A stretch of 45,555 nt of DNA from a virus, in UHGV virus genome UHGV-2198558. The stretch is one strand, 5' to 3'. The translations under genes were made by a program, and so were the position numbers. Position 1 is the stretch's first letter. Each line of letters begins with the position of its first letter. The notes beneath the pieces were generated by a model. It worked only from the letters and a program-made list of their open reading frames with translations, searched no databases and had not been told where the DNA came from. Shown here piece after piece: positions 4,259 to 22,689 of the stretch.

Positions 4259-5131
4259 TTACTCCTCATCGTCCTCGTGCATGACTTCATATCGCTTGAT
4301 ATCTCTCTTGCTTGCAATGGAAGCGGGTTCAAGGATACCGAGAACGCGCCCGATCAGAGTGACATTGTCATATTCTGTGAATGTCATGGTATCATACTTA
4401 TCATTAAACGATACCAGACCTTCTTCCTCATATATCTTTATGTATGTACTGTTTCCAACCATGAAAGCGCCGACCTCATCGTATTGCAGCTCCGGACAGC
4501 CGGGATACTTCTCCACAAGAACAAGGTCGCCGTCATGATACTCAGGCTCCATACTGTCGCCGTTGACAGGAAACACAAGGTCTGCCTGCCGTATTGCTGT
4601 GTTCGTATTCGGATACAGATAGATCGGTGTTCCGTTGTCCTCAAACTCCGCCCCGCCGTCAAAGCCTGCTGCAAGCCCCTTGTCGCAGAGTGTCAGTTTG
4701 ATGATCTCCGGGAAGCTGCCGACAGTCTCTGCCGCTTCAAGCGAGGATAGCAGACTGTCCATTGCAAGCTGGTGCGGATACGACAGTCCACGGTATCTCT
4801 CTACCATAGACTTTTCCTTATCAGTATAGGTATCTTGCTTGTTTTCGATGCCATATAGTTCATACAGCGTGATACCAAGTGCGTCACATAGCTTAGGAAC
4901 AACGCTGAAATCCGGGCGGGTTCTTCCGTTCTCCCAGTTACTGATAGCATTTGAGGTCACGCCGATTTTTTCTGCAATCACTTTCTGATCTAATTTTAGA
5001 CGCTCCCTGTAGTATTTGATGCGACCGCCAACCGCGTGAGCGTCCTTACGGTGGGCAGGATCAGAGATGTTACTCTTAATATCCTTGCCTCCCTGTGAGA
5101 CTGAGATATTCGGTTTCTTACGCTGTTTCAT
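4259..5131 (-). CDS. Prophage repressor, CI/LexA-like (XRE-type HTH plus S24 self-cleaving peptidase domain)
   Basis: HTH segment IKYYRERLKLDQKVIAEKIGVTSNAISNWENG; S24 motifs VNGDSMEPEY and GDLVLV. Start set to ATG 5131 (AAGGAG 9 nt upstream); the ORF-track start at 5149 is a TTG. Confidence 0.85.
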   Translation of the reverse strand: MKQRKKPNISVSQGGKDIKSNISDPAHRKDAHAVGGRIKYYRERLKLDQKVIAEKIGVTSNAISNWENGRTRPDFSVVPKLCDALGITLYELYGIENKQDTYTDKEKSMVERYRGLSYPHQLAMDSLLSSLEAAETVGSFPEIIKLTLCDKGLAAGFDGGAEFEDNGTPIYLYPNTNTAIRQADLVFPVNGDSMEPEYHDGDLVLVEKYPGCPELQYDEVGAFMVGNSTYIKIYEEEGLVSFNDKYDTMTFTEYDNVTLIGRVLGILEPASIASKRDIKRYEVMHEDDEE

Positions 5132-5291
5132 TACAAAGCTCTCCTTCAAGAATGTATGGGATAGTCAATCCTCAAAACGAACAAATATTCTTATTGAAAT
5201 CTGTGCAACCCTACAAAGTTTATCAAAGACTTTTCAACGCTGAAAACGTTAGAAATGCGAAATTTGGCGTAGGCATTGCATCTTTGATCAC

Positions 5292-5563: not shown

Positions 5564-7492
5564 ATGACTATATATCTTGATAGAGGACCGTTTCTCACCA
5601 TTCCCGACAAGCTGCATTCGGGGCAGTACAGAGTGATCCGCAACCCCGACTGGCACGGAGTACTGCCGGAGATCGTGTCCTTCACCGATTTTCTCAAATG
5701 GAATTACACACTGGAGTATGGTCAGTATATCCGCAAATTGCACTACTACCACCAGCTTCCGCTGCCGTGGGTCGTTCCACAGGATGCCGAGATAGAAACT
5801 GTCATCATCGAGGAAGGCAGATATGACCGCATTGATCACAATTCCTTTGATATGTATGTGATATGCGATGTCGTGTTCGAGATGAACGGCTGCCGGCAGT
5901 GCCAGAAGTATATCGTACACGGCTTTTACTGCTCTTACGGCGGTTCAGACTTTCTGTGCGGTGCGGAGCTCTACAATGGTCAGTTTATCCGGCTGAACAA
6001 TCCCTTAGATGAGTTTCTGGTTCCCATCCTTTCAAAGAAAGAATTTGCAAGCATTGCACAAGCAATCATCGACCACTACTATTCATACAAATCGAATTAT
6101 CCCTGCCGCATCAATACTGCTTCAATTGCAAAGGCAATGGGTCACGATATAAAGTATGCCAGACTGTCAAAAAACGGAAATGTCAAGTCCAAGCTGATCC
6201 TGGACAAGCGGGATACGACCGTCTATGATAAGGAATACAAAGCTGTCAAAATGCGGATCGACAGTCCTACGATCCTTGTGGACGAGTCATTGGAGGAGGA
6301 TGAAGCGCAGAACGCCATTATTCATGAGTGCGTTCACGCTTACCTTCACAACCTCTTCTATGAGCTGCAGAGCTACTATCGGAAAATGGTCGGCAGGAAG
6401 ATGCCGGAGTTCAATGACTACTTCTATTCCAAGACGCAGCGTAGCTGCCTGAAATGGATGGAAACACAGGCAAATGCCATCCCACGCTTTATTCAGATGC
6501 CGGAGGAGCAGGCATCCGATGTCATCCTGAACTTCTTCGAGCGACTCCCCGGAGAGCCTGACTGGGACGATTACAGAGAACTGATCGACCTTGTGAAATG
6601 GAAGTTCGGAGTATCCCGCAATGCTGCGAAGAAGCGTATCATTGAGCTTGGCTGGCCGGAGGTGCGCGGTGTGTATGTCTACAACACCACAGGATATGTT
6701 GAGGACTACGATGTAGAGCTAAGATTCCCGCAGGACTATACCTATACACTGTCATTCCGCCAAATCTCTGATGTGTTTGCATCCTGCGAGACCTTCGCAG
6801 AGCTTGTCCGTTCCAAGAAGTTCATCTATCTGGACGGTCATGTTGTGATCAACAGCGACAGGTATATCCGCAAGGAACACGGCTTAGCTATGGGCTTGAC
6901 AGAGTATGCTAGACACCACATGGCAGAGTGCTGTCTGGATTTCAAGCGTATCTACGCAGAATTCGACTACAGCTATACCTATGGCGAGCTACACAAGGAT
7001 GACCTGACCGAGATCACGGCCGAAAACCGTTCGTTCAGCGATGAACAGCGAAAGAAGATCCGCATGGCAATGTATGAGATCACAGAAGAAAACTATAAAC
7101 TGACCGTTCCTTCAGATGTCAACGAATTCGGCAAGGCGGTGCGTTTCCATATGGAGAGATGCGGTCTCACCTCGGATCTGGTTGCAGACCGCAGCGGCAT
7201 GGGTGTGAACACTGTCAATAAGATGCGCAGTGGCAAGAGAGTGAAGCTCGAAACAGTGCTAGCTTTTTGTGTCGCTTTGGAGCTTGAAGAGTCGTTCCGC
7301 ATTGACCTTATGCAGAAAGCGAAGGTTGATTATGATATGAGCAATCCTGCCCATCGGCTCTATGTCACGATCTTTGAGCTGATGCCGAAGGCAAATGTCT
7401 TTCAGATCAACGATCTGCTGAAGGCAGAAGGCTTTACGCCGTGGACGAGGGACTGCGAGGAAAAGAAGCGGTATGCTAAGAAAAGTATGTAA
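5564..7492 (+). CDS. Large regulatory protein: HExxH (ImmA/IrrE-like) metallopeptidase motif plus C-terminal XRE-type HTH
   Basis: 642 aa; CAGGAGGG RBS; IIHECVHAYLH motif mid-protein; C-terminal HTH (GLTSDLVADRSGMGVNTVNKMRSGKR). Confidence 0.7.
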   Translation: MTIYLDRGPFLTIPDKLHSGQYRVIRNPDWHGVLPEIVSFTDFLKWNYTLEYGQYIRKLHYYHQLPLPWVVPQDAEIETVIIEEGRYDRIDHNSFDMYVICDVVFEMNGCRQCQKYIVHGFYCSYGGSDFLCGAELYNGQFIRLNNPLDEFLVPILSKKEFASIAQAIIDHYYSYKSNYPCRINTASIAKAMGHDIKYARLSKNGNVKSKLILDKRDTTVYDKEYKAVKMRIDSPTILVDESLEEDEAQNAIIHECVHAYLHNLFYELQSYYRKMVGRKMPEFNDYFYSKTQRSCLKWMETQANAIPRFIQMPEEQASDVILNFFERLPGEPDWDDYRELIDLVKWKFGVSRNAAKKRIIELGWPEVRGVYVYNTTGYVEDYDVELRFPQDYTYTLSFRQISDVFASCETFAELVRSKKFIYLDGHVVINSDRYIRKEHGLAMGLTEYARHHMAECCLDFKRIYAEFDYSYTYGELHKDDLTEITAENRSFSDEQRKKIRMAMYEITEENYKLTVPSDVNEFGKAVRFHMERCGLTSDLVADRSGMGVNTVNKMRSGKRVKLETVLAFCVALELEESFRIDLMQKAKVDYDMSNPAHRLYVTIFELMPKANVFQINDLLKAEGFTPWTRDCEEKKRYAKKSM

Positions 7493-8140: not shown

Positions 8141-8863
8141 ATGGAAAACGCAAATGTTCAGAATGCTGCCGCTATCACCGATAAGACCACCCTCGGCGAA
8201 CTGCTTGCAATGCTTGACCTCGCTGATAAGGCAGGCAAGATGCCGACACCGAGAGAACTGTTTGAGACTGCCGGTTCGCCGATAGCCGATATGAATGGCT
8301 GCACTCTCTTCAGCAACGGCTTCGCCATCTATCAGAATGTCACTGGGCGCACTGTTGTCTGGCTGCCGTACTGCAAGAGCTTCACCTATTACTTCGGCAA
8401 GCTCCGTGATTCCGAGAAAGACACGCTGACAGAGACCTATGAGCTGCCGGATGGATTTCTGGAAACACAGCCGTGGGTGATCGCAGTAACACTGATCGGC
8501 GACCATCGTGTGGAGGCAAACAGCATGAACCGCACCGGCAGCCGCAAGGATACCACAGATTATGACAGCGCCGATAACGGCGATAAAGACGGTGATGCAG
8601 AGGAGGCTTTGGCAGATCCGTATCGCAGGGCATTCAACTGGTATGACGGACGCATGGGCGAGAATCCGCAGGATGCCGTGGAGCGCAGAGAGACACGCGA
8701 GGAGATGCTTGCAGACATGACGGACAAGCAGCGTGAAGCCTTTATTATGTACTTCAGGGATGGTATGACGCAGGAAGAGATTGCTTCATATATAGGGGTA
8801 AGCCGTGATTCCATAAATGACAGGCTTGAAGGTGCTTTGAAAAAAGCAAAAAAATATTTTTAG
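8141..8863 (+). CDS. Sigma-70 region-4-like HTH protein (putative phage transcription regulator)
   Basis: C-terminus LTDKQREAFIMYFRDGMTQEEIASYIGVSRDSINDRLEGALKKAKK resembles sigma region 4; no region 2 recognised. Start at ATG 8141 after GAAAGGAA. Confidence 0.65.
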   Translation: MENANVQNAAAITDKTTLGELLAMLDLADKAGKMPTPRELFETAGSPIADMNGCTLFSNGFAIYQNVTGRTVVWLPYCKSFTYYFGKLRDSEKDTLTETYELPDGFLETQPWVIAVTLIGDHRVEANSMNRTGSRKDTTDYDSADNGDKDGDAEEALADPYRRAFNWYDGRMGENPQDAVERRETREEMLADMTDKQREAFIMYFRDGMTQEEIASYIGVSRDSINDRLEGALKKAKKYF

Positions 8864-8906
8864 GATACCCACAAAAAGACCTCTCCCACGACAGTATATG
8901 AGAGGG
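8863..8906. repeat. Copy 1 of a 44-bp intergenic repeat (second copy at 22690-22733)
   Basis: ggatacccacaaaaagacctctcccacgacagtatatgagaggg; 41 of 44 positions identical to copy 2; contains a cctctc/gagagg hairpin. Confidence 0.6.
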
Positions 8907-8994
8907 CTTGAAAAGAAACCAAACCGCAAGCGGCTGCAAAGCCCTCGCAGCCGAACCATTATTACATCGGTCGAAAGACCTGAACAGAAAGGAA

Positions 8995-9363
8995 ATGCTT
9001 ATGCCTATGGAAAACAGAGTCCCGAAAAACCGCTACAACGGCGGTGCCGCAACCGATGCCGACAAGCAGGACAAGCCCGATGTGCTGAAGATGATCGAAA
9101 CGGCAATGGACAAGCGTGCGGCGGGCATCGCACAGACGGTCACGGATATGTTCCGTTTCATGTCGATGGCATCTGCCATGCTCCCGAATATGGAGATGGA
9201 TGTCGGTGTGTTCCGTCTGAAGATCGACGATGACGGCATCTTTTTCGAGATCAACCATCCGTTCCGCAAGCGCAAGCAGCGTGATATCTCCAATGACTGC
9301 TGTGCCGAGGAGCCGGACAACTATGATGATGACGAGGAGGGACTGATTTATGACGGAGACTGA
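8995..9363 (+). CDS. Hypothetical protein with acidic C-terminus
   Basis: GAAAGGAA RBS then ATG 8995; C-terminus EEPDNYDDDEEGLIYDGD. Confidence 0.55.
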   Translation: MLMPMENRVPKNRYNGGAATDADKQDKPDVLKMIETAMDKRAAGIAQTVTDMFRFMSMASAMLPNMEMDVGVFRLKIDDDGIFFEINHPFRKRKQRDISNDCCAEEPDNYDDDEEGLIYDGD

Positions 9364-9844
9364 AAAGAAATTCCCTGTGCCGGGACCGCTTCCCGTAGAC
9401 GCAAAGAAGCTGATCGATGGGCTTGGCACGATCTTCGGCGGCGTGATCCAGCTTCTGGCAGCAATGGAGCCGAACATGGCAAAGGAGCTGGCGGACATGG
9501 CGATCAACGGTGTGCCAAAGGAGACTGCGCCGGAGGAAATCAATCCGGACGATTTCGAGGAGATCATCACCGCTGACGATCTGCCGTGGGATACAGAGCC
9601 GGAGCAGCCCGAAGAGCCGAAACCTGCGGAAAAGCCCAAACCGAAGAAGGCGGCAAAGAGGGCGGAGCCTGCATCGGAGCTGACCGCTGATGACCTCATC
9701 CGCGTGGTGACGCAGAAGATCAAGCAGAACCGTGCCAACAAGGACAAAGTGCTGGCGCTGCTGAAATCCTACGGTGCGGCAAAAGTCAGCGATATACCTG
9801 CGGACAAGTACGAAGCGTTTCTCACTGACCTGTCGCAGCTCTGA
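9350..9844 (+). CDS. Hypothetical protein
   Basis: GAGGAGGGA RBS; 164 aa with a Pro/Glu/Lys-rich linker; overlaps the previous stop by 14 nt. Confidence 0.55.
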   Translation: MTETEKKFPVPGPLPVDAKKLIDGLGTIFGGVIQLLAAMEPNMAKELADMAINGVPKETAPEEINPDDFEEIITADDLPWDTEPEQPEEPKPAEKPKPKKAAKRAEPASELTADDLIRVVTQKIKQNRANKDKVLALLKSYGAAKVSDIPADKYEAFLTDLSQL

Positions 9845-9858
9845 TCGGAGGTGGCACG

Positions 9859-11106
9859 ATGCCGGATGTTCATGCACTTCTGAGTGCATCCAGTTCCAAG
9901 CAATGGCTTCACTGTCCGCCGTCCGTCCGCCTGCAGGAGAACTTTCCGAACGAGAGCTCCGTGTATGCCGCCGAGGGAACATTCGCTCATGAGGTCTGCG
10001 AGTACAAGGTCCGCAAGTATCTGAAGGAGCGTGTGAAACGTCCGCAGTCCGAGGAATATGACACCGAGGAAATCGAGCAGATCACAGATGTGTATGCGGA
10101 GTTCGTGATCTCCATCATTGAGCAGATGAAGGAGAACGGCTGTGAGTCGCTTGCTTTTGTTGAGGAGCGTGTGGACTACAGCCACATTGCCCCTTCCGGC
10201 TTTGGCACGGCAGATATGCTCATCATCGGTAAGGACGAGCAGGGACGCGGAATCCTTCATGTATGCGATTTCAAGACGGGTGCAGGCGTGTTTGTGGATG
10301 CAGACCACAACAGCCAGATGATGCTCTATGCGATCGGAGCTTTAGCCGCCTACGGCTTTTTGTATGATATTGAGATCGTGCGTATGAGCATCATTCAGCC
10401 TCGTCTGGATAATATCAGCACATTCGAGTGCAGCAGAGCCGAGCTTGAGGAATGGGGCGAGAGCATCAAGCCCATTGCGAAACTTGCCTACGAGGGCAAG
10501 GGCGAACAAAGCCCCGGCGACTGGTGTCGGTTCTGCCGTGCAAAGCCTGTTTGCAAAGCGTGTGCCAATGAAGCACTGGCACTCTGCCGTGAGGATTTCC
10601 TTGACCTCGATGCCGGAGCATTCGATGATACTGCGGAGGAAAGCGATATGACCGCACCCTACGAAGCGGATATACAGACTGCCGTATTCAAGCAGCCGGG
10701 ACTGATTCCTATCAGCGAACTTGCGGAGATCCTGCCGACTCTGAACCGCATCAGCTCTTGGATCGAGGCGGTATTCGCATTCGTATCCTCCGAGGCGATC
10801 AATCACGGTGTACCGATTCCCGGCTATAAGGTGGTCGAAGGGCGCAGCAAGCGTGTATTCACAGATACAAAAGCTGTGGTCGATACCGCTGTTCAGAACG
10901 GGTACACCGACCTTTACAAGCAGACGCTCATCACGCTGACGGAATTTGAAAAGATGATGGGCAAGAAAAAGTTCAACGAGCTGCTCGGTGAGTATGTCGC
11001 CAAGCCACCCGGAAAGCTGGCACTTGTGCCGGAGAGCGATCCGAGAGAACCCGTTGATCTCACAACACCCGGTCAGGAATTTGAAGTTCTCTCTGATGAT
11101 GAGTGA
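9859..11106 (+). CDS. PD-(D/E)xK nuclease, DUF2800-like (Cas4/RecB-like cysteine cluster)
   Basis: N-terminus LSASSSKQWLHCP, core DMLIIG...HVCDFKTG, cysteine cluster CRFCRAKPVCKAC; GGAGGTG RBS. Family name from recall. Confidence 0.78.
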   Translation: MPDVHALLSASSSKQWLHCPPSVRLQENFPNESSVYAAEGTFAHEVCEYKVRKYLKERVKRPQSEEYDTEEIEQITDVYAEFVISIIEQMKENGCESLAFVEERVDYSHIAPSGFGTADMLIIGKDEQGRGILHVCDFKTGAGVFVDADHNSQMMLYAIGALAAYGFLYDIEIVRMSIIQPRLDNISTFECSRAELEEWGESIKPIAKLAYEGKGEQSPGDWCRFCRAKPVCKACANEALALCREDFLDLDAGAFDDTAEESDMTAPYEADIQTAVFKQPGLIPISELAEILPTLNRISSWIEAVFAFVSSEAINHGVPIPGYKVVEGRSKRVFTDTKAVVDTAVQNGYTDLYKQTLITLTEFEKMMGKKKFNELLGEYVAKPPGKLALVPESDPREPVDLTTPGQEFEVLSDDE

Positions 11107-11179
11107 GGATCATACAATAATGCCGCAATTATTCTGTTTGGTGAATACGCAAAATTGAATGAAATATAGGAGGTATACT

Positions 11180-11755
11180 ATGGCAAACACAACACCCGCG
11201 ACTAAAGTGGTTATTCCCTGTCGCATTTCTTTTGCGAACATCTGGGAGCCAAAATCAATTAATGGCAGCGAAGAGAAGTATTCCGTTTCCCTACTGATCC
11301 CGAAGGATGACAAGGCAACGCTCGCCAAGATCAAGAAGGCAATTGAGGCGGCAAAGGAAGCGGCGAAGGAGAAGAAGTGGGGCGGCAAGATCCCGCCGAA
11401 CCTCAAGCTGCCGATGCATGACGGCGACATCGACCGTCCTGATGACGAGAACTATGCCGGTCACTTCTTCTTCAATGCCACGAGCAAGGATGCACCGCAG
11501 ATCGTTGACCGCCATGTGCAGCCGATTCTCGATCCGATGGAGTGCGGCAGCGGTGACTATTGCAATGTCAGCGTGAACTTCTACGGTTTTGCAGCATCCG
11601 GCAACAAGGGCATCGCAGCAGGACTCCAGAACATCCAGCTTGTCCGCCACGGTGAGCGTCTTGCGGGCAGACCGACCGCAGCATCCGACTTCGTTGAGGT
11701 CGAGGGCGATGACACGGATGATCTCGCAGACGATGATCTGGATTTCCTGAACTGA
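11180..11755 (+). CDS. DUF2815-like single-strand DNA-binding protein
   Basis: TAGGAGGT RBS then ATG 11180; acidic SSB-like tail DDLADDDLDFLN; sits between the DUF2800-like nuclease and the polymerase. Family name from recall. Confidence 0.72.
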   Translation: MANTTPATKVVIPCRISFANIWEPKSINGSEEKYSVSLLIPKDDKATLAKIKKAIEAAKEAAKEKKWGGKIPPNLKLPMHDGDIDRPDDENYAGHFFFNATSKDAPQIVDRHVQPILDPMECGSGDYCNVSVNFYGFAASGNKGIAAGLQNIQLVRHGERLAGRPTAASDFVEVEGDDTDDLADDDLDFLN

Positions 11756-11795
11756 CGCATAAGGGAGGCTTGCCTCCCTGTACATACACAAACAG

Positions 11796-14681
11796 GTGGT
11801 GATTTTATTGAGCAGACGTGTACTTTCCATCGACTTAGAGACCTATTCGGATGTAGACCTCCCGAACTGCGGTGTGTACCGCTATGTTGAGGGAGATTTC
11901 CATATCCTGCTGTTCGCATATGCATTTGACGATGAGGAGACAAAATGCGTGGATATGGCCTGCGGGGAGCAGCTCCCGGCAGAGGTCGTGGATGCGCTGC
12001 AGGATGACAGTATTATCAAATCGGCATGGAACGCACAGTTTGAGCGTACCTGCCTTTCAAAATATCTCGGTACGCAGATTTCTCCGGACTCGTGGCAATG
12101 CACGATGGTATGGGCGGCATCGCTTTCACTTCCGCTGAAGCTGGCAACGGCTGCACAGGCACTGAAAACTGCACAGCAGAAGGACGCTGTCGGTGAGCGT
12201 CTTATCCGTTATTTCTCTCTGCCCTGTAAGCCCACCAAAGCAAACGGCGGCAGAACAAGAAATCTGCCGGAACACGCCCCCGAAGACTGGAAGCTGTTCA
12301 AAAGCTACTGCATACAGGACGTGGAAACCGAGCGGGATATCCGCCGCAGGCTTGAAAAGTTCCCCCTGCTCCCGCAGGAATGGGACTACTACCACATGGA
12401 TCAGCGGATCAATGATCGCGGTATCCTGATCGACAAAGAGCTTGTGCAGCAGGCTATTATCTGCAATATGGCAATGTCCGAAGAAATGACAAAACGTGCA
12501 TACGCTCTGACAGGACTTGAAAATCCGAATTCCGTATCACAGCTCAAGGGATGGCTTGAGGAGCGTGGCATTGAGGTGGATTCCCTCGGCAAAAAGAATG
12601 TCGCTTCTCTTATCACAGACCTCGACAGGCACAGCGCAGACGGTGAGGCTCTGGATATGATGAAGCTGCGGTTGCAGATGGCAAAGTCCTCTGTGAAAAA
12701 GTATCAGGCGGCAGAGAGATACATCTGTCAGGACGGCAGGGCGCACGGACTGTTTCAGTTTTCCGGAGCTCAGCGAACACAGCGCTGGTGTCTTACCGGC
12801 GATCATGAAATACTGACAGATAAAGGCTGGCTCAGGCTTGATAATTGGCAGGGCGGTAAGATTGCTTGTTGGAATCCTAATCAGGAAATGGTCTCGTTCC
12901 AGAAAGCGAACGTATTGTGCTTTGAATATGACGGTCCTATCTACCGCTATGAGGACAAACGGATCGATCAGATCAGCACGCCGGATCACAAAATGCGTGT
13001 AAAGAAACGGTATAACGGCGAGTGGACGGATGACACTGTTGGCAATATGGAAAAGTATCGTCCTTCTATTCCGTTTACCGGACGCAGACAAACGATGCCC
13101 GGCTTGGAGCACGCAGAACTGAGGGTACTGGTGATGACGCAGGCTGACGGCAGCTATAAAGAAGATGGAATGCTCTGCTTCCATTTCAAGAAGAAAAGGA
13201 AAATAGAACGGTGCAAACATCTGCTCAGACAGGCGGGCATTTATTTCACAGTGAATGAATGCAGGACAGATGGAACAACGCAGATCAAGATTCCTTCCCG
13301 TGAGCAGCCGATGTATCTAAGAATGTTTCATAACAAGACATTTGGAATGTGGCTTCTCGATGAAAGCCCGGATGTTTTCTTTGATGAGCTTCGGTATTGG
13401 GACGGATCGCAAAGCGCCAAAAACAGTATCCAATATACCACAACGAACAAAGTGAATGCCGATATTGTTCAGGCTTTTGCTCATACAAGTGGTCGCTGTG
13501 CAAAAATGAAAACGGTCATCCGGGATAAAGAACACCCGAATTGGAGCGATGCATACTATCTCGATATATGGCTCACTCCGAAAAACTGTCATGAAATCAG
13601 AGTGAAGCCGACTATCTCGCAATTCAGCGGCAAAATATACTGTGCTGAAACCCCAACCGGATACTTCCTTGTAAGACGTAATGGTAAAGTGTGGGTAACA
13701 GGAAACAGCGGGCGCGGCATTCAATTACAGAACCTGCCGCAGAACCACATCTCTACCCTCGATGAAGCAAGAGAACTTGTCAAAATGGGCTGCTTTGACA
13801 TGATCGAAGCACTGTACGGCAATACGCCGGATATCCTGTCACAGCTTATCCGCACGATGCTCATTCCGAAGGACGGCTGTGAATTTATCGTGGCAGACTT
13901 CTCCGCCATTGAAGCGAGAGTACTTGCGTGGCTTGCCGGAGAACAGTGGCGGCTCGATGCCTTCAAGCGTGGCGAGGATATTTACTGTGCATCCGCATCG
14001 CAAATGTTCGGTGTTCCGGTCGTGAAGCACGGCATCAATGGAGAACTGCGGCAGAAAGGCAAGGTCGCTGAGCTTGCCTGTGGTTACGGAGGTGGCAGCG
14101 GTGCGCTGATCTCTATGGGTGCGCTGGATATGGGACTGAAAGAGGATGAACTTCCCGACATCATTTCAAGCTGGCGCGATGCAAACCCGGAGATCGTGAA
14201 ATTCTGGTATGCCGTGGAGAAAGCGGCGATCGAAACAGTCAAGGACCACGCGGAAAGAACGGTCGGCAGGATCGGTTTTCAGTTCTCTGCAAATACACTG
14301 TGGATCGTGCTGCCGTCCGGGCGCAGACTTGCCTACATCAAGCCGAGGTTACAGCCGAACCGTTTCGGGCGTATGGCGCTGACCTTTGAAGGACTCGGTG
14401 CAAACAACAAATGGACGCGCGGTGAGACATACAGCGGCAAGCTGACGGAGAACATCACACAGGCGACCGCCCGTGACCTGCTTGCAGAGGCAATGCACCG
14501 AATGGAGCTTGCGGGACTTGACATAGTCGGTCATGTGCATGATGAGGTCATTTTGGAAGTGCCGAAAAGACAATATACGGTCGATGATGTGTGCAATATC
14601 ATGAATCAAAATCCGAGATGGGCAGACGGTCTGCCCTTATCATCTGCCGGATATACCGGCAATTACTACTTCAAAGACTGA
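11796..14681 (+). CDS. Family-A DNA polymerase (3'-5' exonuclease plus polymerase) interrupted by an intein
   Basis: Exo motif SIDLETYSD; polymerase motif A FIVADFSAIEARVLAW, motif B RQKGKVAELACGYGGG, motif C HVHDEVILE. Start uncertain (GTG 11796 or TTG 11808). Confidence 0.85.
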   Translation: MVILLSRRVLSIDLETYSDVDLPNCGVYRYVEGDFHILLFAYAFDDEETKCVDMACGEQLPAEVVDALQDDSIIKSAWNAQFERTCLSKYLGTQISPDSWQCTMVWAASLSLPLKLATAAQALKTAQQKDAVGERLIRYFSLPCKPTKANGGRTRNLPEHAPEDWKLFKSYCIQDVETERDIRRRLEKFPLLPQEWDYYHMDQRINDRGILIDKELVQQAIICNMAMSEEMTKRAYALTGLENPNSVSQLKGWLEERGIEVDSLGKKNVASLITDLDRHSADGEALDMMKLRLQMAKSSVKKYQAAERYICQDGRAHGLFQFSGAQRTQRWCLTGDHEILTDKGWLRLDNWQGGKIACWNPNQEMVSFQKANVLCFEYDGPIYRYEDKRIDQISTPDHKMRVKKRYNGEWTDDTVGNMEKYRPSIPFTGRRQTMPGLEHAELRVLVMTQADGSYKEDGMLCFHFKKKRKIERCKHLLRQAGIYFTVNECRTDGTTQIKIPSREQPMYLRMFHNKTFGMWLLDESPDVFFDELRYWDGSQSAKNSIQYTTTNKVNADIVQAFAHTSGRCAKMKTVIRDKEHPNWSDAYYLDIWLTPKNCHEIRVKPTISQFSGKIYCAETPTGYFLVRRNGKVWVTGNSGRGIQLQNLPQNHISTLDEARELVKMGCFDMIEALYGNTPDILSQLIRTMLIPKDGCEFIVADFSAIEARVLAWLAGEQWRLDAFKRGEDIYCASASQMFGVPVVKHGINGELRQKGKVAELACGYGGGSGALISMGALDMGLKEDELPDIISSWRDANPEIVKFWYAVEKAAIETVKDHAERTVGRIGFQFSANTLWIVLPSGRRLAYIKPRLQPNRFGRMALTFEGLGANNKWTRGETYSGKLTENITQATARDLLAEAMHRMELAGLDIVGHVHDEVILEVPKRQYTVDDVCNIMNQNPRWADGLPLSSAGYTGNYYFKD
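12789..13706 (+). mobile_element. Intein (306 aa) within the DNA polymerase, with candidate LAGLIDADG homing-endonuclease motifs
   Basis: Starts CLTGDHEILTDKGW (block A, Cys1) and ends VWVTGN followed by Ser; internal LRVLVMTQADGSY and LRYWDGSQ motifs. Inserted in ...GAQRTQRW / SGRGIQLQNLP. Confidence 0.7.
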
Positions 14682-14694
14682 GGAGGATATTCTT

Positions 14695-15744
14695 ATGAAA
14701 CAGGGACGAGCATTACCGGAAGTGCTGACAGAGCTTCAGAGACAGAATGCAGCAAAGCAGGATTATATTGGCACGGCAGAGGCGTTCCGTCTGGACGAGG
14801 ACGGCAGCACCTTCCGGATCGGTGACGATCACAGCTTTGGTACCACACAGCTTTTCCATCGTCAGGTGGCATCGGCACTCGGCATTCCGGCGAAGTATTA
14901 CGACATGATGCAGAAACAGAAGCCTGACCTTCTGGCAGACAATGTGAATGCATGGTTCAGTGACAAGGGCAGCAGCTACATGGTGCGTACCCTTGATTAC
15001 GGCAGCGGACAGGTTGCGAGAGCCTTTCTGTCTGACCGTTACCGCCGTATCGATAACCTTGAAATTGCCTCGGCTGTTCTCCCGATTTTCGCCGGACAGG
15101 AAGGCATGGAGGTCATGAGCTGCGAGGTCACAGAGAATAAGCTGTATCTGAAGATCGTCAATCACCGTCTGGAAATGGCGTGTGTCGGTGACCGTGTGCA
15201 GGCAGGTGTCATCATCTCCAATTCGGAGGTTGGACTCGGTGCTGTGTCTGTTCAGCCGCTTGTCTATACACTTGCCTGCACCAACGGCATGGTGGTCAAC
15301 AGTATGGGCGAACGCCGTACCCATGTCGGCAGGGCGGCGAAAGCACTGGAAGACAGCTTCAATATCTACACAAATGAAACCCTCGAAGCCGAAGATAAGG
15401 CATTCATGCTGAAGCTCCGTGATACCACAATGGCAGCAATTGAAGAGGCTCGTTTCGCACAGATCATCGGTGTGTTGGAGCAGAGCCACGGCGCAAAGAT
15501 CACAGGACGTGTGCAGGATGTCATCGAACTGACCGGCAAGGCGTATGACCTGAATCAGTCGGAACAGGACAGCATTCTGAACTATCTCATCAAGGGCGGC
15601 GATCTTTCCCTCTATGGTCTGAGCAATGCCATCACACGCGCTTCGCAGGATGTAGATTCCTACGACAGAGCCACTGCGTTAGAGGGCATCGGCTGGCAGG
15701 TGGCGACCATGCCTGCAAATCAGTGGAAGGAGATCAACGCATGA
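14695..15744 (+). CDS. DUF932-like phage/plasmid protein
   Basis: GAGGAGGA RBS; 349 aa; segments AFLSDRYRRIDNLE and VIISNSEVGLGAVS match my recollection of DUF932/TIGR03299 proteins. Confidence 0.6.
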   Translation: MKQGRALPEVLTELQRQNAAKQDYIGTAEAFRLDEDGSTFRIGDDHSFGTTQLFHRQVASALGIPAKYYDMMQKQKPDLLADNVNAWFSDKGSSYMVRTLDYGSGQVARAFLSDRYRRIDNLEIASAVLPIFAGQEGMEVMSCEVTENKLYLKIVNHRLEMACVGDRVQAGVIISNSEVGLGAVSVQPLVYTLACTNGMVVNSMGERRTHVGRAAKALEDSFNIYTNETLEAEDKAFMLKLRDTTMAAIEEARFAQIIGVLEQSHGAKITGRVQDVIELTGKAYDLNQSEQDSILNYLIKGGDLSLYGLSNAITRASQDVDSYDRATALEGIGWQVATMPANQWKEINA

Positions 15745-15974
15745 GCAGAACCTGGAAAGACAGAAAAGGATATAAAACACGCAGAAAACGACACGGATAT
15801 CCTGTGCCGGAGATCTGCAATTACACACGCGGCAGCTATGAAGATTATGACCACAGCGATGAGGAACTGTATGTCGATGACCAGTGCTGCGAGAACTGCC
15901 GCTTTTGCGGATGTTGCCGTCATACACCGTTCCCGTCGGGCTGGTGCGAATACTGGAAGGACGGCACACATTGA
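15741..15974 (+). CDS. Small cysteine-rich protein
   Basis: ATG overlaps the previous stop (ATGA); cysteine cluster CCENCRFCGCC. Confidence 0.45.
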   Translation: MSRTWKDRKGYKTRRKRHGYPVPEICNYTRGSYEDYDHSDEELYVDDQCCENCRFCGCCRHTPFPSGWCEYWKDGTH

Positions 15975-16411
15975 GAGAATATGTTGTCGAAAACGAGTTT
16001 GTCAAGGCGGTAAAAGCGGCAGGCGGTGTGGCATACAAGCTGACATCGCAGACCGCAAACGGACTGCCGGACAGACTCGTTCTGTTCCCGGCGGCAAAGA
16101 CGATTTTCGTGGAGCTGAAAGCACCGGGGAAAATGATGCGACCGTTGCAGCGTAAAAGACGGTATCAGCTTATGAAACTCGGCTTTCCGGTGCTGTGCAT
16201 TGACAGGATGCCGCAGATCAAGCCGTTCATATCAGCAGCATTGTCATGGACACCCGGTGAGCCGTTCCCGGAAGGCATCGGTGCGAAGATACCCGATCTG
16301 GAAAGGGCAACGCTGCCGACGGATATGGATAACTTCGGGGAAACGCTTGAACCCATCGATCCAGACAATCTGATAGAGTTTTATGAAATAGAGGACGGTG
16401 ATGATGCATGA
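15971..16411 (+). CDS. VRR-NUC domain nuclease
   Basis: GLPDRLVLFP...FVELKAPGK...LQRKRRYQ pattern. Start uncertain (TTG 15971 after GGAAGGA, or ATG 15911). Confidence 0.65.
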   Translation: MREYVVENEFVKAVKAAGGVAYKLTSQTANGLPDRLVLFPAAKTIFVELKAPGKMMRPLQRKRRYQLMKLGFPVLCIDRMPQIKPFISAALSWTPGEPFPEGIGAKIPDLERATLPTDMDNFGETLEPIDPDNLIEFYEIEDGDDA

Positions 16412-16905
16412 TTAACCCTAAACGCAGAGCTGTGAGAAAAAGCTGCTCATACTGCGGAACTGTCTTTACCTATGTCGGAAGTCATGGTACAAGAAATAAG
16501 CATTTTTTCTGTTCTCATGAATGCTATATTGCCTTTAAGACAAAGAAAGCAGAAGTGAAATGCGATTGGTGCGGCAAATCAATGCTGAAAAAACGCTCTG
16601 ATATATGGAGAACGGATCACAATTTCTGCTGCCCCGAATGCTGTTTACTGTATAGGCAAAAGCAAGGCGAAACTTCATGGAATCATCGTGTGAATGGAAT
16701 AACCGTACACAGGGGCATTTTGGAGAAGAAGCTCGGACGAGAACTGCGTGCGGATGAAGAAGTACACCTTATCGATGGTAACCATTTCAATAATGATCCG
16801 GACAATCTCATCGCCCTTTCCAAATCGGAACACGCCAAAATTCATTCTTCTTGGAAAGCGAGGGACGAGTATGGAAAATACGTTAAAACGCAGTCAGATT
16901 CATGA
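16408..16905 (+). CDS. HNH homing endonuclease with N-terminal zinc-finger-like CxxC pairs
   Basis: HLIDGNHFNNDPDNLIALSKSEHAKIH HNH motif; ATGA overlap with the VRR-NUC stop. Confidence 0.8.
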   Translation: MINPKRRAVRKSCSYCGTVFTYVGSHGTRNKHFFCSHECYIAFKTKKAEVKCDWCGKSMLKKRSDIWRTDHNFCCPECCLLYRQKQGETSWNHRVNGITVHRGILEKKLGRELRADEEVHLIDGNHFNNDPDNLIALSKSEHAKIHSSWKARDEYGKYVKTQSDS

Positions 16906-18253
16906 ATACCAAAAATACTGTGTTGACTTTATTAAGTCTCATCCCGTATCAGCACTCTTTTTGGATTGCGGACTTGGAAAGACGATCATTTCATTGACTG
17001 CAATATATGATCTAATGTTTGATGAGCTGAAGGTATCTAAAGTTCTTGTAATTGCCCCTCTAAGAGTGACAAATGTCTGGAAAGCGGAGGTTCAGAAATG
17101 GAGTCATCTGCAAGATGTTGATGTTGCGATAGTAGTCGGAACTGTAAAACAGCGGATTGCTGCGATTAACAGTAACGCTCTTGTTTACGCTGTCAACCGT
17201 GAAAATGTGAAGTGGCTCGTAGAGTATTACGAGAAGAACGGTCTTCGCTGGGATTACGATATGATCGTCATTGACGAGCTGAGTTCCTTCAAAAACTACC
17301 AGTCACAGCGGTTCAAATGGTTGCGTAAGGTTCGGCCTTTCGTGAAGCGCTGGGTAGGATTGACAGGAACGCCGACTTCCAACGGTCTCATGGACCTGTG
17401 GGCAGAGATCGGTATCCTTGACGGCGGTGAGCGGCTCGGACGGTTTATAGGCAGATTTCGTGAAAGCTATTTCAAGCCTGCGTCCATGAATCCGTCAACC
17501 GGTGTTGTTTTCAGCTACACCCCACGTCCCGTCGCAGAGGAGCAGATCTATAACAAAATCTCCGACATTACGATTTCCATGAAGGCACTGGATTATCTGG
17601 ATATGCCGGAATGTATCTTCGTCAATCATGAGGTCGAGATGAATGCAGCAGAGCGAAAACTATACGATCAGCTGAAACAGGATCTTATCATTCCGCTTGA
17701 GGACGGAGATATCGATGCTGCCAACGCTGCCTCTCTCTCCAACAAGCTGCTCCAGATGGCTAACGGCGCGGTCTATGACGAAAACAAGGAAGCCCGAATC
17801 ATTCACAGCCGGAAACTGGAAATGCTGGAAGACCTGATCGAAGCCGCAAACGGACAGCCTGTTCTGGTCGGCTACTGGTTCAAGCATGACCGCACTCGCA
17901 TCATGGAGCATCTAACCGCCTGCGGTTACAGCCCTCGTGATATAAAGGATTCCGCCGACATCACAGACTGGAACGCCGGAAACATCCCGGTCGCTCTTAT
18001 ACACCCCGCTTCGGCAGGACACGGTCTGAACATTCAGTCCGGTGGCCATATCATGATCTGGTTCGGTCTGACATGGAGCTTAGAGCTTTATCAGCAGACA
18101 AATGCGCGTTTGTGGAGGCAGGGACAGAAGCACACTGTCACGATCCACCACATCGTAACAAAAGACAGTGTCGATGAGGATGTGCTTGCTGCTTTGGCCA
18201 ATAAGGATGTAACACAGGAGAAATTGATCGCCGCTGTCAAGGCGAGATTATAG
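16871..18253 (+). CDS. SNF2-family helicase
   Basis: Walker A LDCGLGKT, motif II DELS, helicase C-terminal motifs. Start at ATG 16871 (MENTLKRSQIHEYQ); overlaps the HNH gene by 35 nt. Confidence 0.85.
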   Translation: MENTLKRSQIHEYQKYCVDFIKSHPVSALFLDCGLGKTIISLTAIYDLMFDELKVSKVLVIAPLRVTNVWKAEVQKWSHLQDVDVAIVVGTVKQRIAAINSNALVYAVNRENVKWLVEYYEKNGLRWDYDMIVIDELSSFKNYQSQRFKWLRKVRPFVKRWVGLTGTPTSNGLMDLWAEIGILDGGERLGRFIGRFRESYFKPASMNPSTGVVFSYTPRPVAEEQIYNKISDITISMKALDYLDMPECIFVNHEVEMNAAERKLYDQLKQDLIIPLEDGDIDAANAASLSNKLLQMANGAVYDENKEARIIHSRKLEMLEDLIEAANGQPVLVGYWFKHDRTRIMEHLTACGYSPRDIKDSADITDWNAGNIPVALIHPASAGHGLNIQSGGHIMIWFGLTWSLELYQQTNARLWRQGQKHTVTIHHIVTKDSVDEDVLAALANKDVTQEKLIAAVKARL

Positions 18254-18338
18254 GATCATACTCTCCGTATGATCCGCACTGAAAAGACGACAAAGCGGCG
18301 ACAAAACGGTTACACCGCACTCTATGGAGGTGAAAACT

Positions 18339-18842
18339 ATGGCGCGTAAGAACAAACGCCTGAAAACAGAATACCACAGAGGTCTCGGTTTTGATCCGCG
18401 AAAGTATATGACTTCCTACTCCCACCAAACTCGCTGTGAATCAATTCCGACTCCCGACCGTGCTCCAAAGCGCGGCGATATCTGGTTTGCGCGGCTCGGC
18501 ACACATCCGAATTCCAGTGTGCAGGGCGGCACCCGTCCCGTTATCATCATTTCTAACGACCTCGGCAACGAACACGCTGACACCGTCAATGTTGTGCCGA
18601 TGACCAGACACCTGAAAAAGCCGGAGCTGCCTTGTCACACTCCGCTTTCTCCCGGCAGCATTACCGATAGCAGACAGCCGCTTGAACTGTCAATGGTGCT
18701 GGCGGAGCAGCTCACAACTGTCAGCAAGAACGCACTTCGCTATTATGCAGGTCATATTTCCGATGACGAAGCTATGAACCGCATCGAAACCGCTGTTATT
18801 GCGCAGCTCAGTCTTGAAAGGAGATATTCCAAATGCCTGTGA
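18339..18842 (+). CDS. MazF/PemK-like protein with a 48-aa basic N-terminal extension
   Basis: GDIWFARLGTHPNSSVQGGTRPVIIISND and NVVPMT parallel E. coli MazF GDLIWVDFDPTKGSEQAGHRPAVVLS and CVPCTT. GGAGGT RBS 7 nt before ATG 18339. Confidence 0.6.
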   Translation: MARKNKRLKTEYHRGLGFDPRKYMTSYSHQTRCESIPTPDRAPKRGDIWFARLGTHPNSSVQGGTRPVIIISNDLGNEHADTVNVVPMTRHLKKPELPCHTPLSPGSITDSRQPLELSMVLAEQLTTVSKNALRYYAGHISDDEAMNRIETAVIAQLSLERRYSKCL

Positions 18843-21262
18843 ATTTTGTCAATATCCCAGATGTTCTGAAGCAGACCGCTTCTTTCTGTGTCTGGAAGCT
18901 GGAAAAGAGATCCGGCAGACCGACCAAAGTACCGTATAACCCTCGCACCGGTGCAATGGCGAGAACCAACGATCCGTCTACCTTTGCAGACTTCAATACA
19001 GCAATGAAATCCTATGCCATCGGCGGATGGGACGGTATCGGCTATCGTGTCAGCGAAGGCATCGGTGCAATCGACATCGACCACTGCATCCGTGAGGACG
19101 GCAGTCTCAATGATGTTGCAGCATCCATTCTCGGTATCTTCCCCGATGCGTACTTTGAGCGCAGCCCCTCTGGTACCGGCTTGCGCGGCTTTTTTCGCCT
19201 TTCTCCTGATTTCGCCTACGATAAGACTGTGTACTACATCAACAACCGAAAGCACGGTCTGGAGGTCTATCTTCCCGGTGTGACGAACCGCTTTGTGACT
19301 GTTACAGGAGATATGTTCCGCAATGGTGCAGTTACCCGAAATGACGGTTCCCTGCGCACACTACTTGATACCTTCATGAAGCGCAGCACCCGTGTATCTT
19401 CCAAGACTGTCGAGCCTGTGTCCTATCTCGATGATGACGGTGTTATCGCTCACGCATCGGCATCTGAATCCGGCGACAAGTTCAAAGCACTGTATGCCGG
19501 TAACTGGGAGGAAGGCTACGATTCCCAGTCCGATGCAGATATGGCGCTTGTGTCTATCCTTGCATTCTGGTGCGGTAATGTCGAGGAGCAGATCGACCGT
19601 ATCTTCCGAACTTCCGGTCTGATGCGTGATAAGTGGGATCGTATGACCGGAGACAGAACTTACGGACAGATCACGATCCGCAATGCTGTCGCTACCAATT
19701 CCGCTGTCTATACACCGATTCAGGATTCTACGGCAGAAGATGACTTTGACGATATCGAGGGCGATGCGGAAAATGAGCAGCTTATGTTTGAGCCTGATCT
19801 CACCCATGTTTCCCTGACGCTGGAAGAAATGCAGCCGCACACGAATCCCCGCTATCAGCGTGACGAGATCGGCATCGGATATGCATTTGCGGATTATTAT
19901 AAGCCCATCGCTCGTTTTGACCGTGAGCGCGGCATCTGGTATGTCTTTGACGGGAAGGTGTGGCAGCCGGACGAGAATGCGCTTGCCGTGGCGGAGCTTG
20001 CAAAGCGTCTGGCAGACAGGCTGTATACCTTTGCCCTTCAGATCAAGGATGAGGACACACGCAACCGCTATATCAAGCGAGTGCAGAAGCTGCAAATGCG
20101 GAAGAACCGCCGCACCATGATCGAAGATGCGAAATCCGTGTATCCAGTGCCGCACGCTATCTTTGACCGCAATACCTACCTTTTCAACTGTCAGAACGGG
20201 ACACTGAACCTCACCACAGGTGAATTCCGTCCGCACGATCCGGCAGACTTTCTCACCATGATGTCCGGTGTCACTTATGATCCGAACGCCACCTGTCCAC
20301 GATGGGAGCAGTTCATTTCCGAAGTTATGTGTAATGATGCTGACCTCGCATTATACTTGCAAAAAGCCCTCGGATATGCGCTTACCGGCGACACATCACT
20401 GGAATGCCTGTTCATCCTCTACGGTGCAACATCCAGAAACGGCAAAGGCACCACAATGGAGACCTTTCTCAAAATCATGGGCGACTACGGCAAAACCTCC
20501 AATCCGGAGATGCTGTCTACGAAATTCGGCAACACCAATGCTTCCGGACCGTCCGAAGAGATCGCCCGGCTTGCGGGTGTCCGTTTTGTCAATATCTCCG
20601 AGCCGGAGAAGAAGATCACCTTCAATGCGGCACTGGTAAAGCGTATGACGGGTAATGATACACTGAATGCACGTTTCCTGCATGAGAATTCCTTCGACTT
20701 CCGACCGAATTTCAAGATCTTCATCAATACGAATTACAAACCGTCCGTTTCTGATATGACACTGTTTTACTCCAACCGTCTGAAGCTCATTCCGTTCAAA
20801 CGCCATTTTGAGGAGCATGAGCAGGACAAAGGTCTGAAAGCATTTTTCAGTACGTATGTCTGCCTCTCTGCCATCTTCAACTGGTGCTATGAAGGATATA
20901 AGCGGTTCCGTTCCGAAGATCTGGAAGATCCGGCTGCTGTATCTCAAGCAACCAAGGAGTATCAGGAGGAGTCTGACCGTATCGGGCAGTTTGTGGATGC
21001 GTGGCTCGAAGAAGGCGAAGCATTTGAAGTCCGTACCTCTGCGGCATATAAGCTGTACGGTGAATGGTGCGATAAATATGGCTACCGCAAGGAAAACAGC
21101 ACCAACTTCAATAACGCGATCCAGCGTTTCTTCCCCATCGTGCGTAAGCGCCCGAACGATACTAAGGGTGCGCAGAAAACAACGATGCTTGTGGGCTGTC
21201 GTTTTCTGGAGCATGAAAACGGCGAAGCTGACGAACCAGAGGAGTTTGCAGCTTTGGAGTAA
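18833..21262 (+). CDS. Primase-helicase (Prim-Pol N-domain plus P4-type primase NTPase)
   Basis: Prim-Pol motifs GAIDIDHC and SPSGTGLRGFF; Walker A ILYGATSRNGKGTT; 809 aa; GAAAGGAG RBS. Confidence 0.85.
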   Translation: MPVNFVNIPDVLKQTASFCVWKLEKRSGRPTKVPYNPRTGAMARTNDPSTFADFNTAMKSYAIGGWDGIGYRVSEGIGAIDIDHCIREDGSLNDVAASILGIFPDAYFERSPSGTGLRGFFRLSPDFAYDKTVYYINNRKHGLEVYLPGVTNRFVTVTGDMFRNGAVTRNDGSLRTLLDTFMKRSTRVSSKTVEPVSYLDDDGVIAHASASESGDKFKALYAGNWEEGYDSQSDADMALVSILAFWCGNVEEQIDRIFRTSGLMRDKWDRMTGDRTYGQITIRNAVATNSAVYTPIQDSTAEDDFDDIEGDAENEQLMFEPDLTHVSLTLEEMQPHTNPRYQRDEIGIGYAFADYYKPIARFDRERGIWYVFDGKVWQPDENALAVAELAKRLADRLYTFALQIKDEDTRNRYIKRVQKLQMRKNRRTMIEDAKSVYPVPHAIFDRNTYLFNCQNGTLNLTTGEFRPHDPADFLTMMSGVTYDPNATCPRWEQFISEVMCNDADLALYLQKALGYALTGDTSLECLFILYGATSRNGKGTTMETFLKIMGDYGKTSNPEMLSTKFGNTNASGPSEEIARLAGVRFVNISEPEKKITFNAALVKRMTGNDTLNARFLHENSFDFRPNFKIFINTNYKPSVSDMTLFYSNRLKLIPFKRHFEEHEQDKGLKAFFSTYVCLSAIFNWCYEGYKRFRSEDLEDPAAVSQATKEYQEESDRIGQFVDAWLEEGEAFEVRTSAAYKLYGEWCDKYGYRKENSTNFNNAIQRFFPIVRKRPNDTKGAQKTTMLVGCRFLEHENGEADEPEEFAALE

Positions 21263-22663: not shown

Positions 22664-22689
22664 TAAATTTTTTGAAATTTTTTTTGATT

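Follow-up and report, generated by a model that had tools for sequence, protein, structure and literature searches.

The two copies of a repeat found in this prophage are best read as the cognate promoters, P1 and P2, of a σ4-type factor that the prophage itself encodes at 8141–8863, a reading to which we assign a probability of about 0.7. Such a promoter was one of the options offered by the initial annotation of this DNA, and it gains support from comparative analysis: a short block within the element co-varies with the recognition helix of the adjacent protein. A phage region-4 factor with cognate promoters is a known type of system, and the clear natural diversification of its specificity is the most interesting aspect of the one described here.

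1. Genomic Context and Copies of the Repeat

The window, i.e., the whole 45.5-kb stretch of DNA under analysis, is a prophage in which each copy of the repeat heads a long co-directional gene block (Table 1). A 43-nt degenerate pattern matches the window exactly twice, at 8863–8905 and 22690–22732 on the + strand, and has no match in 100 dinucleotide-preserving shuffles; ungapped extension lengthens the repeat to 48 nt at 90% identity (8863–8910 versus 22690–22737, + strand). The two-copy repeat reported in the initial annotation is thus real, and so is its placement after a stop codon and an A/T-rich tract. The first base of copy 1 is the last base of the TAG stop (8861–8863) of the σ-like ORF, so that its A/T tract is the coding 3′ end of that gene. 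Copy 2 follows the metK stop TAA (22661–22663) and a non-coding A/T tract, and begins 26 nt past the stop. A search of the window for further diverged copies, allowing up to four mismatches to the core, returned just one chance-level match, inside a gene at 18395.

The gene block after copy 1 is a replication module, in which a 961-aa ORF encodes a family-A DNA polymerase. It closes with metK, and a metK ending in ...LPWE also precedes the copy-2-type elements of relatives. After the HNH gene that follows copy 2 come nrdD/nrdG, three DNA methylases, an accessory region, and the genes for TerS and TerL. Neither copy carries a σ70 consensus promoter; other parts of the window do contain clear promoters of the host type (TTGCTA-17-TGgTAATAT). 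A T7/SP6-type promoter was also considered, as the core agrees with the SP6 promoter at 13 of 22 positions; promoters of this type are conserved over about 23 bp and are served by a phage-encoded single-subunit RNA polymerase. The agreement is equalled by 2% of shuffles, and the reading was rejected on account of this marginal similarity and because no gene for an RNA polymerase turned up in the 45.5-kb window.

Table 1. Coordinates of the candidate promoters P1 and P2, their predicted RNA stems, and the surrounding genes.
Feature	Position	Strand	Remarks
CI/LexA-type repressor	4259–5149	−	
ImmA-like protein gene	5564–7492		
σ-like factor gene	8141–8863	+	240 aa, then copy 1
P1 A-tract/T-tract, probably UP-element-like	8840–8862	+	overlaps codons for C-terminal tail KKAKKYF and stop codon
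P1 putative specificity block GATACCCACAAAAA	8864–8877	+	index −21 to −8
P1 invariant core CTCCCACGACAGTATATGAGAGG	8883–8905	+	index −2 to +20; proposed −10/start-site region
Copy 1 long-range stem GAGGGCTT/AAGCCCTC	8902–8909/8939–8946	+	MFE fold of 8899–8997, z −1.8
First operon gene after P1 (MPMENRVPKNRYNG...)	9001–9363	+	no family match; ORF list/translation
Replication module	9001–22663		DUF2800 exonuclease, Enc34-type SSB, PolA, SNF2 helicase, D5 primase-helicase, metK
metK, S-adenosylmethionine synthetase	21503–22663	+	Pfam S-AdoMet_synt N, M, and C domains; last gene before copy 2
P2 A-tract/T-tract, probably UP-element-like	22660–22689	+	non-coding
P2 putative specificity block GATACCCACAAAAT	22691–22704	+	index −21 to −8
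P2 invariant core CTCCCACGACAGTATATGAGGGG	22710–22732	+	
Copy 2 long-range stem AGGGGCG/CGCCCCT	22728–22734/22781–22787	+	MFE fold, z only −0.15
HNH endonuclease, first gene after P2	22827–23186	+	Pfam/PHROG matches
TerS	41088–41582	+	Pfam/PHROG matches
TerL	41582–44248	+	Pfam/PHROG matches

2. The Element in Related Prophages

The search for more copies and for conservation in relatives, suggested by the initial annotation, was clearly positive. Dozens of related Ruminococcus/Oscillospiraceae prophages carry the same element in the two corresponding places, namely just after the σ-like gene that heads the replication module, and after metK, ahead of the HNH and late genes. A scan of viral contigs for exact matches to an 18-nt core gave 31 loci, and on several contigs the core occurs two to four times. 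Protein-anchored searches, which used no DNA motif, found 11 viral and 23 genomic loci in Ruminococcus flavefaciens (including isolate 007c) and in rumen and gut Oscillospiraceae MAGs. The relative in the cultured isolate 007c (locus L047, NZ_ATAX01000017.1) belongs to class 3 of the helix classes described below. The core lies 12–46 nt past the stop of the factor gene in 28/28 usable protein-anchored loci, and is retained even beside factors of only 50–57% identity. Copy-2-type elements in relatives invariably have metK upstream and an HNH gene downstream. The element is always co-directional with the genes downstream of it, and each copy has a leader, a ribosome-binding site, and a gene downstream. 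On one metagenomic contig, L018, a rearrangement breakpoint falls between block and core, with new sequence on both sides and not hybrid sites. Deposited phage genomes hold no relative of the element or the protein, and a literature search for the core sequence or the prophage type found nothing relevant.

3. Anatomy of the Element

Each copy is built from three parts: an A-tract/T-tract; a 14-nt block (GATACCCACAAAA in this phage); and an almost invariant 23-nt core, CTCCCACGACAGTATATGAGAGG. With the degeneracy of the two copies in the window, the block reads GATACCCACAAAA(A/T) and the core CTCCCACGACAGTATATGAG(A/G)GG. Positions are given here as an index counted from the first C of CCCACGACAG (index 0), which is 8885 in copy 1 and 22712 in copy 2.

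Across 46 distinct copies, A-tracts occupy index −46 to −41 and −37 to −32, followed by a T-tract at −31 to −27. These tracts are kept whether they are coding, as in the copy-1 type, or non-coding, as in the copy-2 type, and they probably form an UP-like element. A GA at −21/−20 and a C at −17 are semi-conserved; the variable block spans −19 to −8, with the greatest variation at −16 to −12; the block contains no internal direct or inverted repeat. The core (−2 to +20) is near 2 bits per position in the same 46 copies, an apparent invariance that is inflated in that part of the sample was found via the exact core, and that the protein-anchored set puts on a firmer footing. It includes index −1 and +15 to +20, positions absent from every search pattern, and weaker conservation extends beyond the core to +27. 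The spacing between block and core is fixed and ungapped in the 46 copies. GATAC and CGAC are 20 nt apart. In the window, the P2 block equals the P1 block at 13 of 14 positions, and the leaders after the core are unrelated.

4. The σ-like Protein

The factor is an acidic protein of 240 aa (27.1 kDa, pI 4.6) that consists of a predicted α/β N-terminal domain of no known family, an acidic linker, and a σ70 region-4 helix-turn-helix (HTH) whose recognition helix spans approximately residues 217–230 (VSRDSINDRLEGAL). Profile searches agree on this C-terminal assignment. Pfam reports Sigma70_r4_2, the NCBIfam TIGR02937 match spans model positions 96–164 only, and the PDB profile match spans residues 178–238 only. 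In an hhalign alignment to E. coli RpoE, residues 181–234 stand opposite 126–179. NCBIfam also gives a weak match to PRK06930, ‘positive control sigma-like factor’ (25.1 bits versus a cut-off of 136), which again covers region 4 only. Region 2 was not found in the factor by Pfam, NCBIfam, fold, or PDB profile searches, nor in the ten distant relatives tested. The current name of the gene, ‘sigma-70 family RNA polymerase sigma factor’, derives solely from region 4.

The N-terminal 130 residues are predicted to adopt an α/β fold in a model of low confidence (pLDDT 58.7), and the predicted domain had no fold match. This domain defines a small family, with 159 representatives at E ≤ 1e-3 among 1.84 billion proteins; homologues of the factor number 488 at the same threshold. 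Distant members of the N-terminal family keep the same architecture, with region 4 in 10/10 tested and region 2 in 0/10.

5. Co-Variation of Recognition Helix and Block

The blocks of one phage resemble each other far more than those of different phages: identity is 90% between copies within a phage (15 pairs from 10 contigs) versus 56% between phages. Within a phage, the 14 nt downstream of the core agree at only 35%, which argues against a recent duplication of a longer segment as the source of the copies. The factor family has ~73% mean column identity and many invariant residues, and its HTH recognition helix is hypervariable. Sorted by this helix, the factors fall into 13 classes that map one-to-one to blocks (Table 2).

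Table 2. Recognition helices of the factor family and the blocks that accompany them.
Recognition helix	Block
SRDSxNDRLEGAL	TACCCACAAA
NHRAVGFRLEGAL	GATACTACCAAAAT
AKMSVNERLRYAL	GACCCCTTACAAAT
SRRTLREHLTCAL	GACCCGCCATTTA
(S/T)QVGVKHHLDAAL	ATAGTTATATTTT
DQTTIRDHLRGAL	GATACCCCTAAAAC

In a Mantel test, distances between N-terminal domains bear no relation to those between blocks (r = −0.03, p = 0.63). Between helix and block, the corresponding test yields r = 0.53 (p ≤ 2e-4), a correlation to be read with the layout of P1 in mind, where the block lies only ~40–80 nt from the helix codons and linkage contributes to the correlation and could alone produce it. The P2 block, 14 kb from the helix codons, still matches in 10/10 phages for which both copies are known, which argues for a functional link and against simple hitch-hiking. 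Pairwise comparisons lead in the same direction. Outside the helix, the factor of the window shares 51% identity with its counterpart in L001, and within the helix 86%; both have the same block. L004 and L014 are 89% identical outside the helix and 43% within it, and have different blocks; for L059 and L060, the two values are 82% and 14%. By these comparisons, helix and scaffold are decoupled in the family, and the related rumen prophages most likely carry at least 13 private factor–promoter pairs.

6. A Model for Promoter Recognition

In the proposed sequence of events, the factor would be expressed after induction from an early host-type promoter upstream of 8141. Its region-4 HTH would read the 14-nt block as a −35-like site, and the factor would lead host RNA polymerase to a start within TATATGAG or just beyond it. 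P1 would thereby switch on the replication module (9.0–22.7 kb), and P2 the HNH, nucleotide-metabolism, methylase, and terminase genes from 22.8 kb onward. The block would lie at about −40 to −25 relative to the start, with the −10/start region contained in the core.

Two features of the relatives help to position the start. In the third copy of L011, the conserved GAGAGG runs into an AGGAGG ribosome-binding site with an ATG 12 nt after, and several leader types have a 5′ stem whose first base is the G of GAG; together, they point to a start at or before approximately index 17. Transcription probably begins within index 13–22, i.e., 8898–8907 in copy 1 and 22725–22734 in copy 2. Two registers are possible: a σ70-like one, in which TATATG is the −10 element and the variable bases fall at about −35, and a shorter, ECF-like one, in which GATAC is the −35 and CGAC the −10 element, with a start near G15.

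How the core would be read can be pictured in two ways. The factor may be a true σ, whose conserved N-terminal part replaces region 2 and reads the invariant core, or, alternatively, it may be an activator that supplies the −35 contact and leaves the core to host σA. That conservation is shared by the domain and the core, and variability by the helix and the block, is a suggestive parallel only. Against the promoter model, the invariant core of 23 nt is much longer than a normal −10 element, a length that the model leaves unexplained, and TATATG is without the −7 T of σA promoters.

The same evidence has to be weighed for an unlikely alternative, namely that the element is a host σA promoter or a read-through site at which the phage protein binds the block as an operator, acting as a repressor or a Q-like antiterminator. 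The co-variation of helix and block shows DNA recognition and not its outcome, and a protein without region 2 would suit such a role; however, the block is a single non-palindromic site, better suited to a monomeric σ4 than to a dimeric operator, and its position ahead of both large operons is consistent with positive control, like that exerted by the Ltr activators discussed below. One distant member of the family has a faint match to Phage_antitermQ (E 0.008, below the cut-off), but the fold matches of the factor are to σ domain 4, with none to known Q folds or repressors. Likewise, an A/T tract together with TATAT could yield weak σA activity, yet neither copy has a σ70-type −35/−10 pair, the −35 position coincides with the very part in which phages differ, and the missing −7 T of TATATG speaks against this alternative as well.

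7. RNA Structure at the Repeat

The initial annotation had also proposed a structured cis-regulatory RNA, such as an attenuator or a processing site, based on hairpins with compensatory variants. In its fuller form, the proposal is that read-through transcripts contain a cis-acting RNA (an attenuator, an RNase processing site, or a put-like antitermination site) with a local hairpin and a long-range stem as alternative folds. We regard this as improbable, although several of its premises are sound. No terminator separates the element from the genes upstream of it, and read-through RNA would include the element. Both copies can indeed form the CCTCTC/GAG(A/G)GG hairpin (hairpin 1; index −5 to 0 with 15 to 20), but the conservation of its pairing did not bear out: across 44 distinct copies, 86.0% of the cells are paired versus 85.6% in column shuffles of the 3′ letters, and one double-change cell was observed versus 2.1 expected, i.e., no excess. 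The pairing potential thus follows from column composition. Index −3 varies between T, A, G, and C without compensation, and the 44-nt hairpin has little thermodynamic support, with fold z-scores of −1.8 (copy 1) and −0.85 (copy 2). The variants described as compensatory are not so, since the A/G difference only exchanges U-A for U-G and the A/C difference lies outside the copy 1 stem. An Rfam scan of the whole window at gathering thresholds gave no match.

Long-range stems are present at both copies, as had been described, but they do not coexist with hairpin 1: the two structures are mutually exclusive because both use GAGAGG. This sharing has the geometry of an alternative-structure switch and so favors an RNA function. 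The copy 1 stem has bases in common with the 3′ arm of hairpin 1, and the 3′ arm of the stem itself falls in the loop of a further hairpin at 8930–8953. Most MFE folds of the leaders predicted to begin at GAG pair the 5′ end with a downstream CCUC, and leaders fold better than shuffles on average (mean z −1.9). Against this, the pairing probability of the 5′ end is about equal to that of shuffled controls (0.67 versus 0.63). The long-range stem does not align across the leaders, which are non-homologous. The only strong class is another HNH-leader type, with a long perfect stem GAGGGGAGUUG...CAACUCCCCUC (z −3 to −3.7), and one C-G to A-U exchange separates two HNH-leader types. An intrinsic terminator was considered and rejected: neither copy has a + strand site or a + strand U-tract, and the single match is on the minus strand of copy 1, where the look-alike depends on the A-run in the block of this phage, which is T-rich in other classes. 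A structured RNA leaves unexplained why the block tracks a DNA-binding helix and why the A/T tract is conserved. Under the promoter reading, the long-range stem may be the 5′-terminal stem of the P1 or P2 transcript.

A DNA site for some other process (cos/pac packaging, a replication origin, or recombination), with the HTH protein akin to a small terminase or an initiator, is very improbable: copy 2 does lie just upstream of an HNH gene, as the cos sites of HNH-terminase phages often do, the HTH has weak matches to PHROG small-terminase families (1e-5), and L018 is broken between block and core, but each phage has two to four co-directional copies, each with its leader, ribosome-binding site, and gene, the phage’s own TerS and TerL are encoded 18 kb downstream, the element holds no iterons or repeats, and the L018 junction does not consist of hybrid sites.

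8. Implications

Phage factors that drive late genes from private promoters are known, and have been little studied outside staphylococcal, enterococcal, and lactococcal phages. The promoter reading provides a regulatory layout for a family of uncultured rumen Ruminococcus/Oscillospiraceae prophages, in which one factor would serve two or more identical promoters and control both the replication and the late modules. The family also amounts to a natural specificity experiment, with at least 13 helix variants on a near-constant scaffold, each accompanied by its own 14-nt site. Such helix–block pairs allow reading of a region-4 recognition code, and are a source of orthogonal promoter–factor parts for Clostridia. 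The case also helps the annotation of genes that are named sigma factors from region 4 alone. Two MAGs each hold two such prophages of different classes, which suggests that cross-activation is avoided.

The mechanistic question raised by these prophages is how a protein without region 2 would use a 23-nt invariant core. A bolder reading, which we give rather less than an even chance, is that the factor belongs to an undescribed class of initiation factors, in which a fixed pairing of a conserved, novel N-terminal domain with region 4, and no region 2, redirects host RNA polymerase unaided to a long, invariant non-σA core. The region-4 helix would then be a swappable specificity cassette that reads the adjacent block, and the family a natural library of at least 13 mutually orthogonal pairs. 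If so, diversification would insulate co-resident prophages from each other or exclude satellites, as heteroimmunity does for repressors.

9. Comparison with Known Systems

Among the systems described so far, those nearest to the present one are the late activators of the Ltr type in Gram-positive phages, and in particular family II (LtrA, Sigma70_r4). The Ltr superfamily (Quiles-Puchalt et al. 2013, PMC3753634) comprises RinA, ArpU, LtrA/Sigma70_r4, LtrB/DUF1492, and LtrC. Its members are small, basic proteins of about 15 kDa whose genes lie directly upstream of terS, where the proteins bind a repeat region in the DNA (PMC3753634). As in the Ltr systems, the factor described here has a C-terminal region-4-like domain that would set the specificity for its own promoter, a likeness that draws here on the co-variation of helix and block. 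Like the Ltr proteins, it would be made from the early region of a prophage that carries a CI-type repressor, and it too would switch on a packaging/late operon, through a promoter left unused by host RNA polymerase on its own. The differences are equally clear. The present factor is a 27 kDa protein with a pI of 4.6 and a conserved extra N-terminal domain, unlike the small and basic Ltr proteins, and beyond region 4 there is no sequence match. Its gene (8141–8863) heads the replication module, with terS at 41088. It has two or more predicted targets, one of them driving replication genes, and the predicted target is a single non-repeated site beside a 23-nt invariant core, with P2 lying 18 kb from terS.

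The element also resembles the promoters of ECF σ factors (group 4; E. coli σE and B. subtilis SigW), which are bipartite, with GA(T)AC-like and CGAC motifs. In both systems, a recognition helix sets specificity, and the hypervariable residues of the present family align with the recognition helix of RpoE. ECF promoters space their −35 and −10 motifs by 16–17 nt, and transcription from them begins 6–8 nt after the −10 element; the spacing from GATAC to CGAC is 20 nt here, and the core is far longer than an ECF −10 element. As to membership of the ECF group, region 4 is present in the factor, and the required region 2 was not found in it.

The σ-like regulators of Firmicutes, i.e., PBSX Xpf and the group 5 proteins TcdR/UviA/BotR/TetR, share with the present system a mobile-element protein related to σ factors and a small number of cognate promoters. 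They retain region 2 and are bona fide sigma factors. The middle promoters of phage T4 offer a likeness of a different kind. MotA has a ‘double-wing’ DNA-binding domain, not a region-4 HTH, and needs AsiA to remodel host σ70, and the T4 middle promoters retain a good σ70 −10 element. What the two systems would have in common is the division of the promoter, in which a phage protein reads a phage-specific box that takes the place of the host −35 element, and the −10 region is common to all promoters.

Predicted RNA Structure in the P1 Leader

The initial annotation had proposed a long-range stem downstream of P1, the first of two repeat copies regarded as promoters of the phage-encoded sigma-like factor, with positions 8902-8909 pairing to 8939-8946. 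The 3' arm of this stem, AAGCCCTC, lies in the loop of a GC-rich local hairpin, so placed that the two structures are either mutually exclusive or together form a pseudoknot. Strong ACGGCTGYGG...CCRCAGCCGT hairpins occupy the equivalent position in relatives, and it is mostly to these that the leaders owe their negative z-scores. A second, smaller hairpin lies close to the first gene of the replication module. Its arms vary among relatives as GGTC/GACC (six), GGCC/GGCC (four), and GACC/GGTC (two), so that two of its four pairs are compensatory, and most of the loops are of the GNRA type. The small hairpin is the sole real covariation signal near the repeat.

Features of the P1 leader, the accessory region and the possible cargo genes
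Feature	Coordinates	Strand	Remarks
GC-rich hairpin, P1 leader	8930-8953		GCGGCTGC/GCAGCCG, 9-nt loop
Small hairpin, P1 leader	8969-8980		GGTC-GAAA-GACC; ~10 nt upstream of the RBS of the first replication-module gene
PemK/MazF-like toxin domain	18324-18842		Within the replication module
HATPase_c_3 protein	78-1589	minus	Left end of the window
Host-type promoter copies, examples	34520-34625, 36678-36784, 37352-37483, 38413-38518, 39841-39905		Repeat families D1, D2, D4, D6-D8

Flanks of the Proposed Promoter Element

At the upstream edge of P1, the A-tract/T-tract like that found before the non-coding copy-2 elements, i.e., those lying between metK and an HNH gene, encodes the factor's conserved C-terminal tail, KKAKK[Y/F]F, together with the stop codon (8840-8863). 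One DNA stretch appears to serve both the protein tail of the factor and the upstream element of the promoter. Conservation also extends past the invariant core: positions +22 to +26, counted from 8885 in P1 and 22712 in the second copy (8907-8911 and 22734-22738), read (C/G)TTG(A/T) in both leader types, with T at +24 in 42 of 46 copies. The promoter model leaves this conservation unaccounted for.

Co-Resident Prophages and Unusual Loci

Two MAGs each carry a pair of family prophages differing in recognition-helix and block class: JAETSI01 (S32_Bin2), with L050 and L053 (SKMSVNERLRYAL with TQVGVKHHLDAAL), and JAFXOO01 (RGIG6603), with L049 and L063 (GACCCGCCATTTA-block class with AKMSVNERLRYAL). 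These differences are consistent with diversification that avoids cross-activation between co-resident prophages.

Two further contigs have unusual arrangements. In IMGVR_UViG_3300049640_001049 (L018), the factor gene and block are inverted relative to the core (~3136 and ~4087); the breakpoint, at about position +2, separates block from core, and both junctions hold unrelated sequence. This inversion is either a genuine rearrangement or a chimeric assembly. The single 20-kb contig IMGVR_UViG_3300010350_000307 (L011/L023) carries four element copies sharing one block. A tandem pair is spaced 170 nt apart, and its second member follows an apparent remnant of the 3' end of the factor gene; a third copy is joined directly to an RBS and gene.

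Possible Insertions, Possible Cargo Genes, and Host-Type Promoters

Residues 332-657 of the family-A DNA polymerase (11796-14681) match PhoH-like and ribonucleotide-reductase families (PHROG), and TerL (41582-44248) contains a LAGLIDADG_3 domain at residues 303-369, suggesting that two essential phage genes carry insertions of inteins or homing endonucleases. The PemK/MazF-like domain protein and the HATPase_c_3 protein may be toxin or defence cargo.

A host-type promoter (TTGCTA/TTGATA, 17 nt, TGnTAATAT) recurs at least five times in the accessory region (33200-40700). Downstream of each copy come a leader of conserved sequence, ACAACGGAAGGGC(A/G)(A/G)ACGCCC, an RBS and a small gene, and the units look like repeated moron promoter-leader cassettes. 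Their promoters show how a sigma-A promoter appears in this genome.
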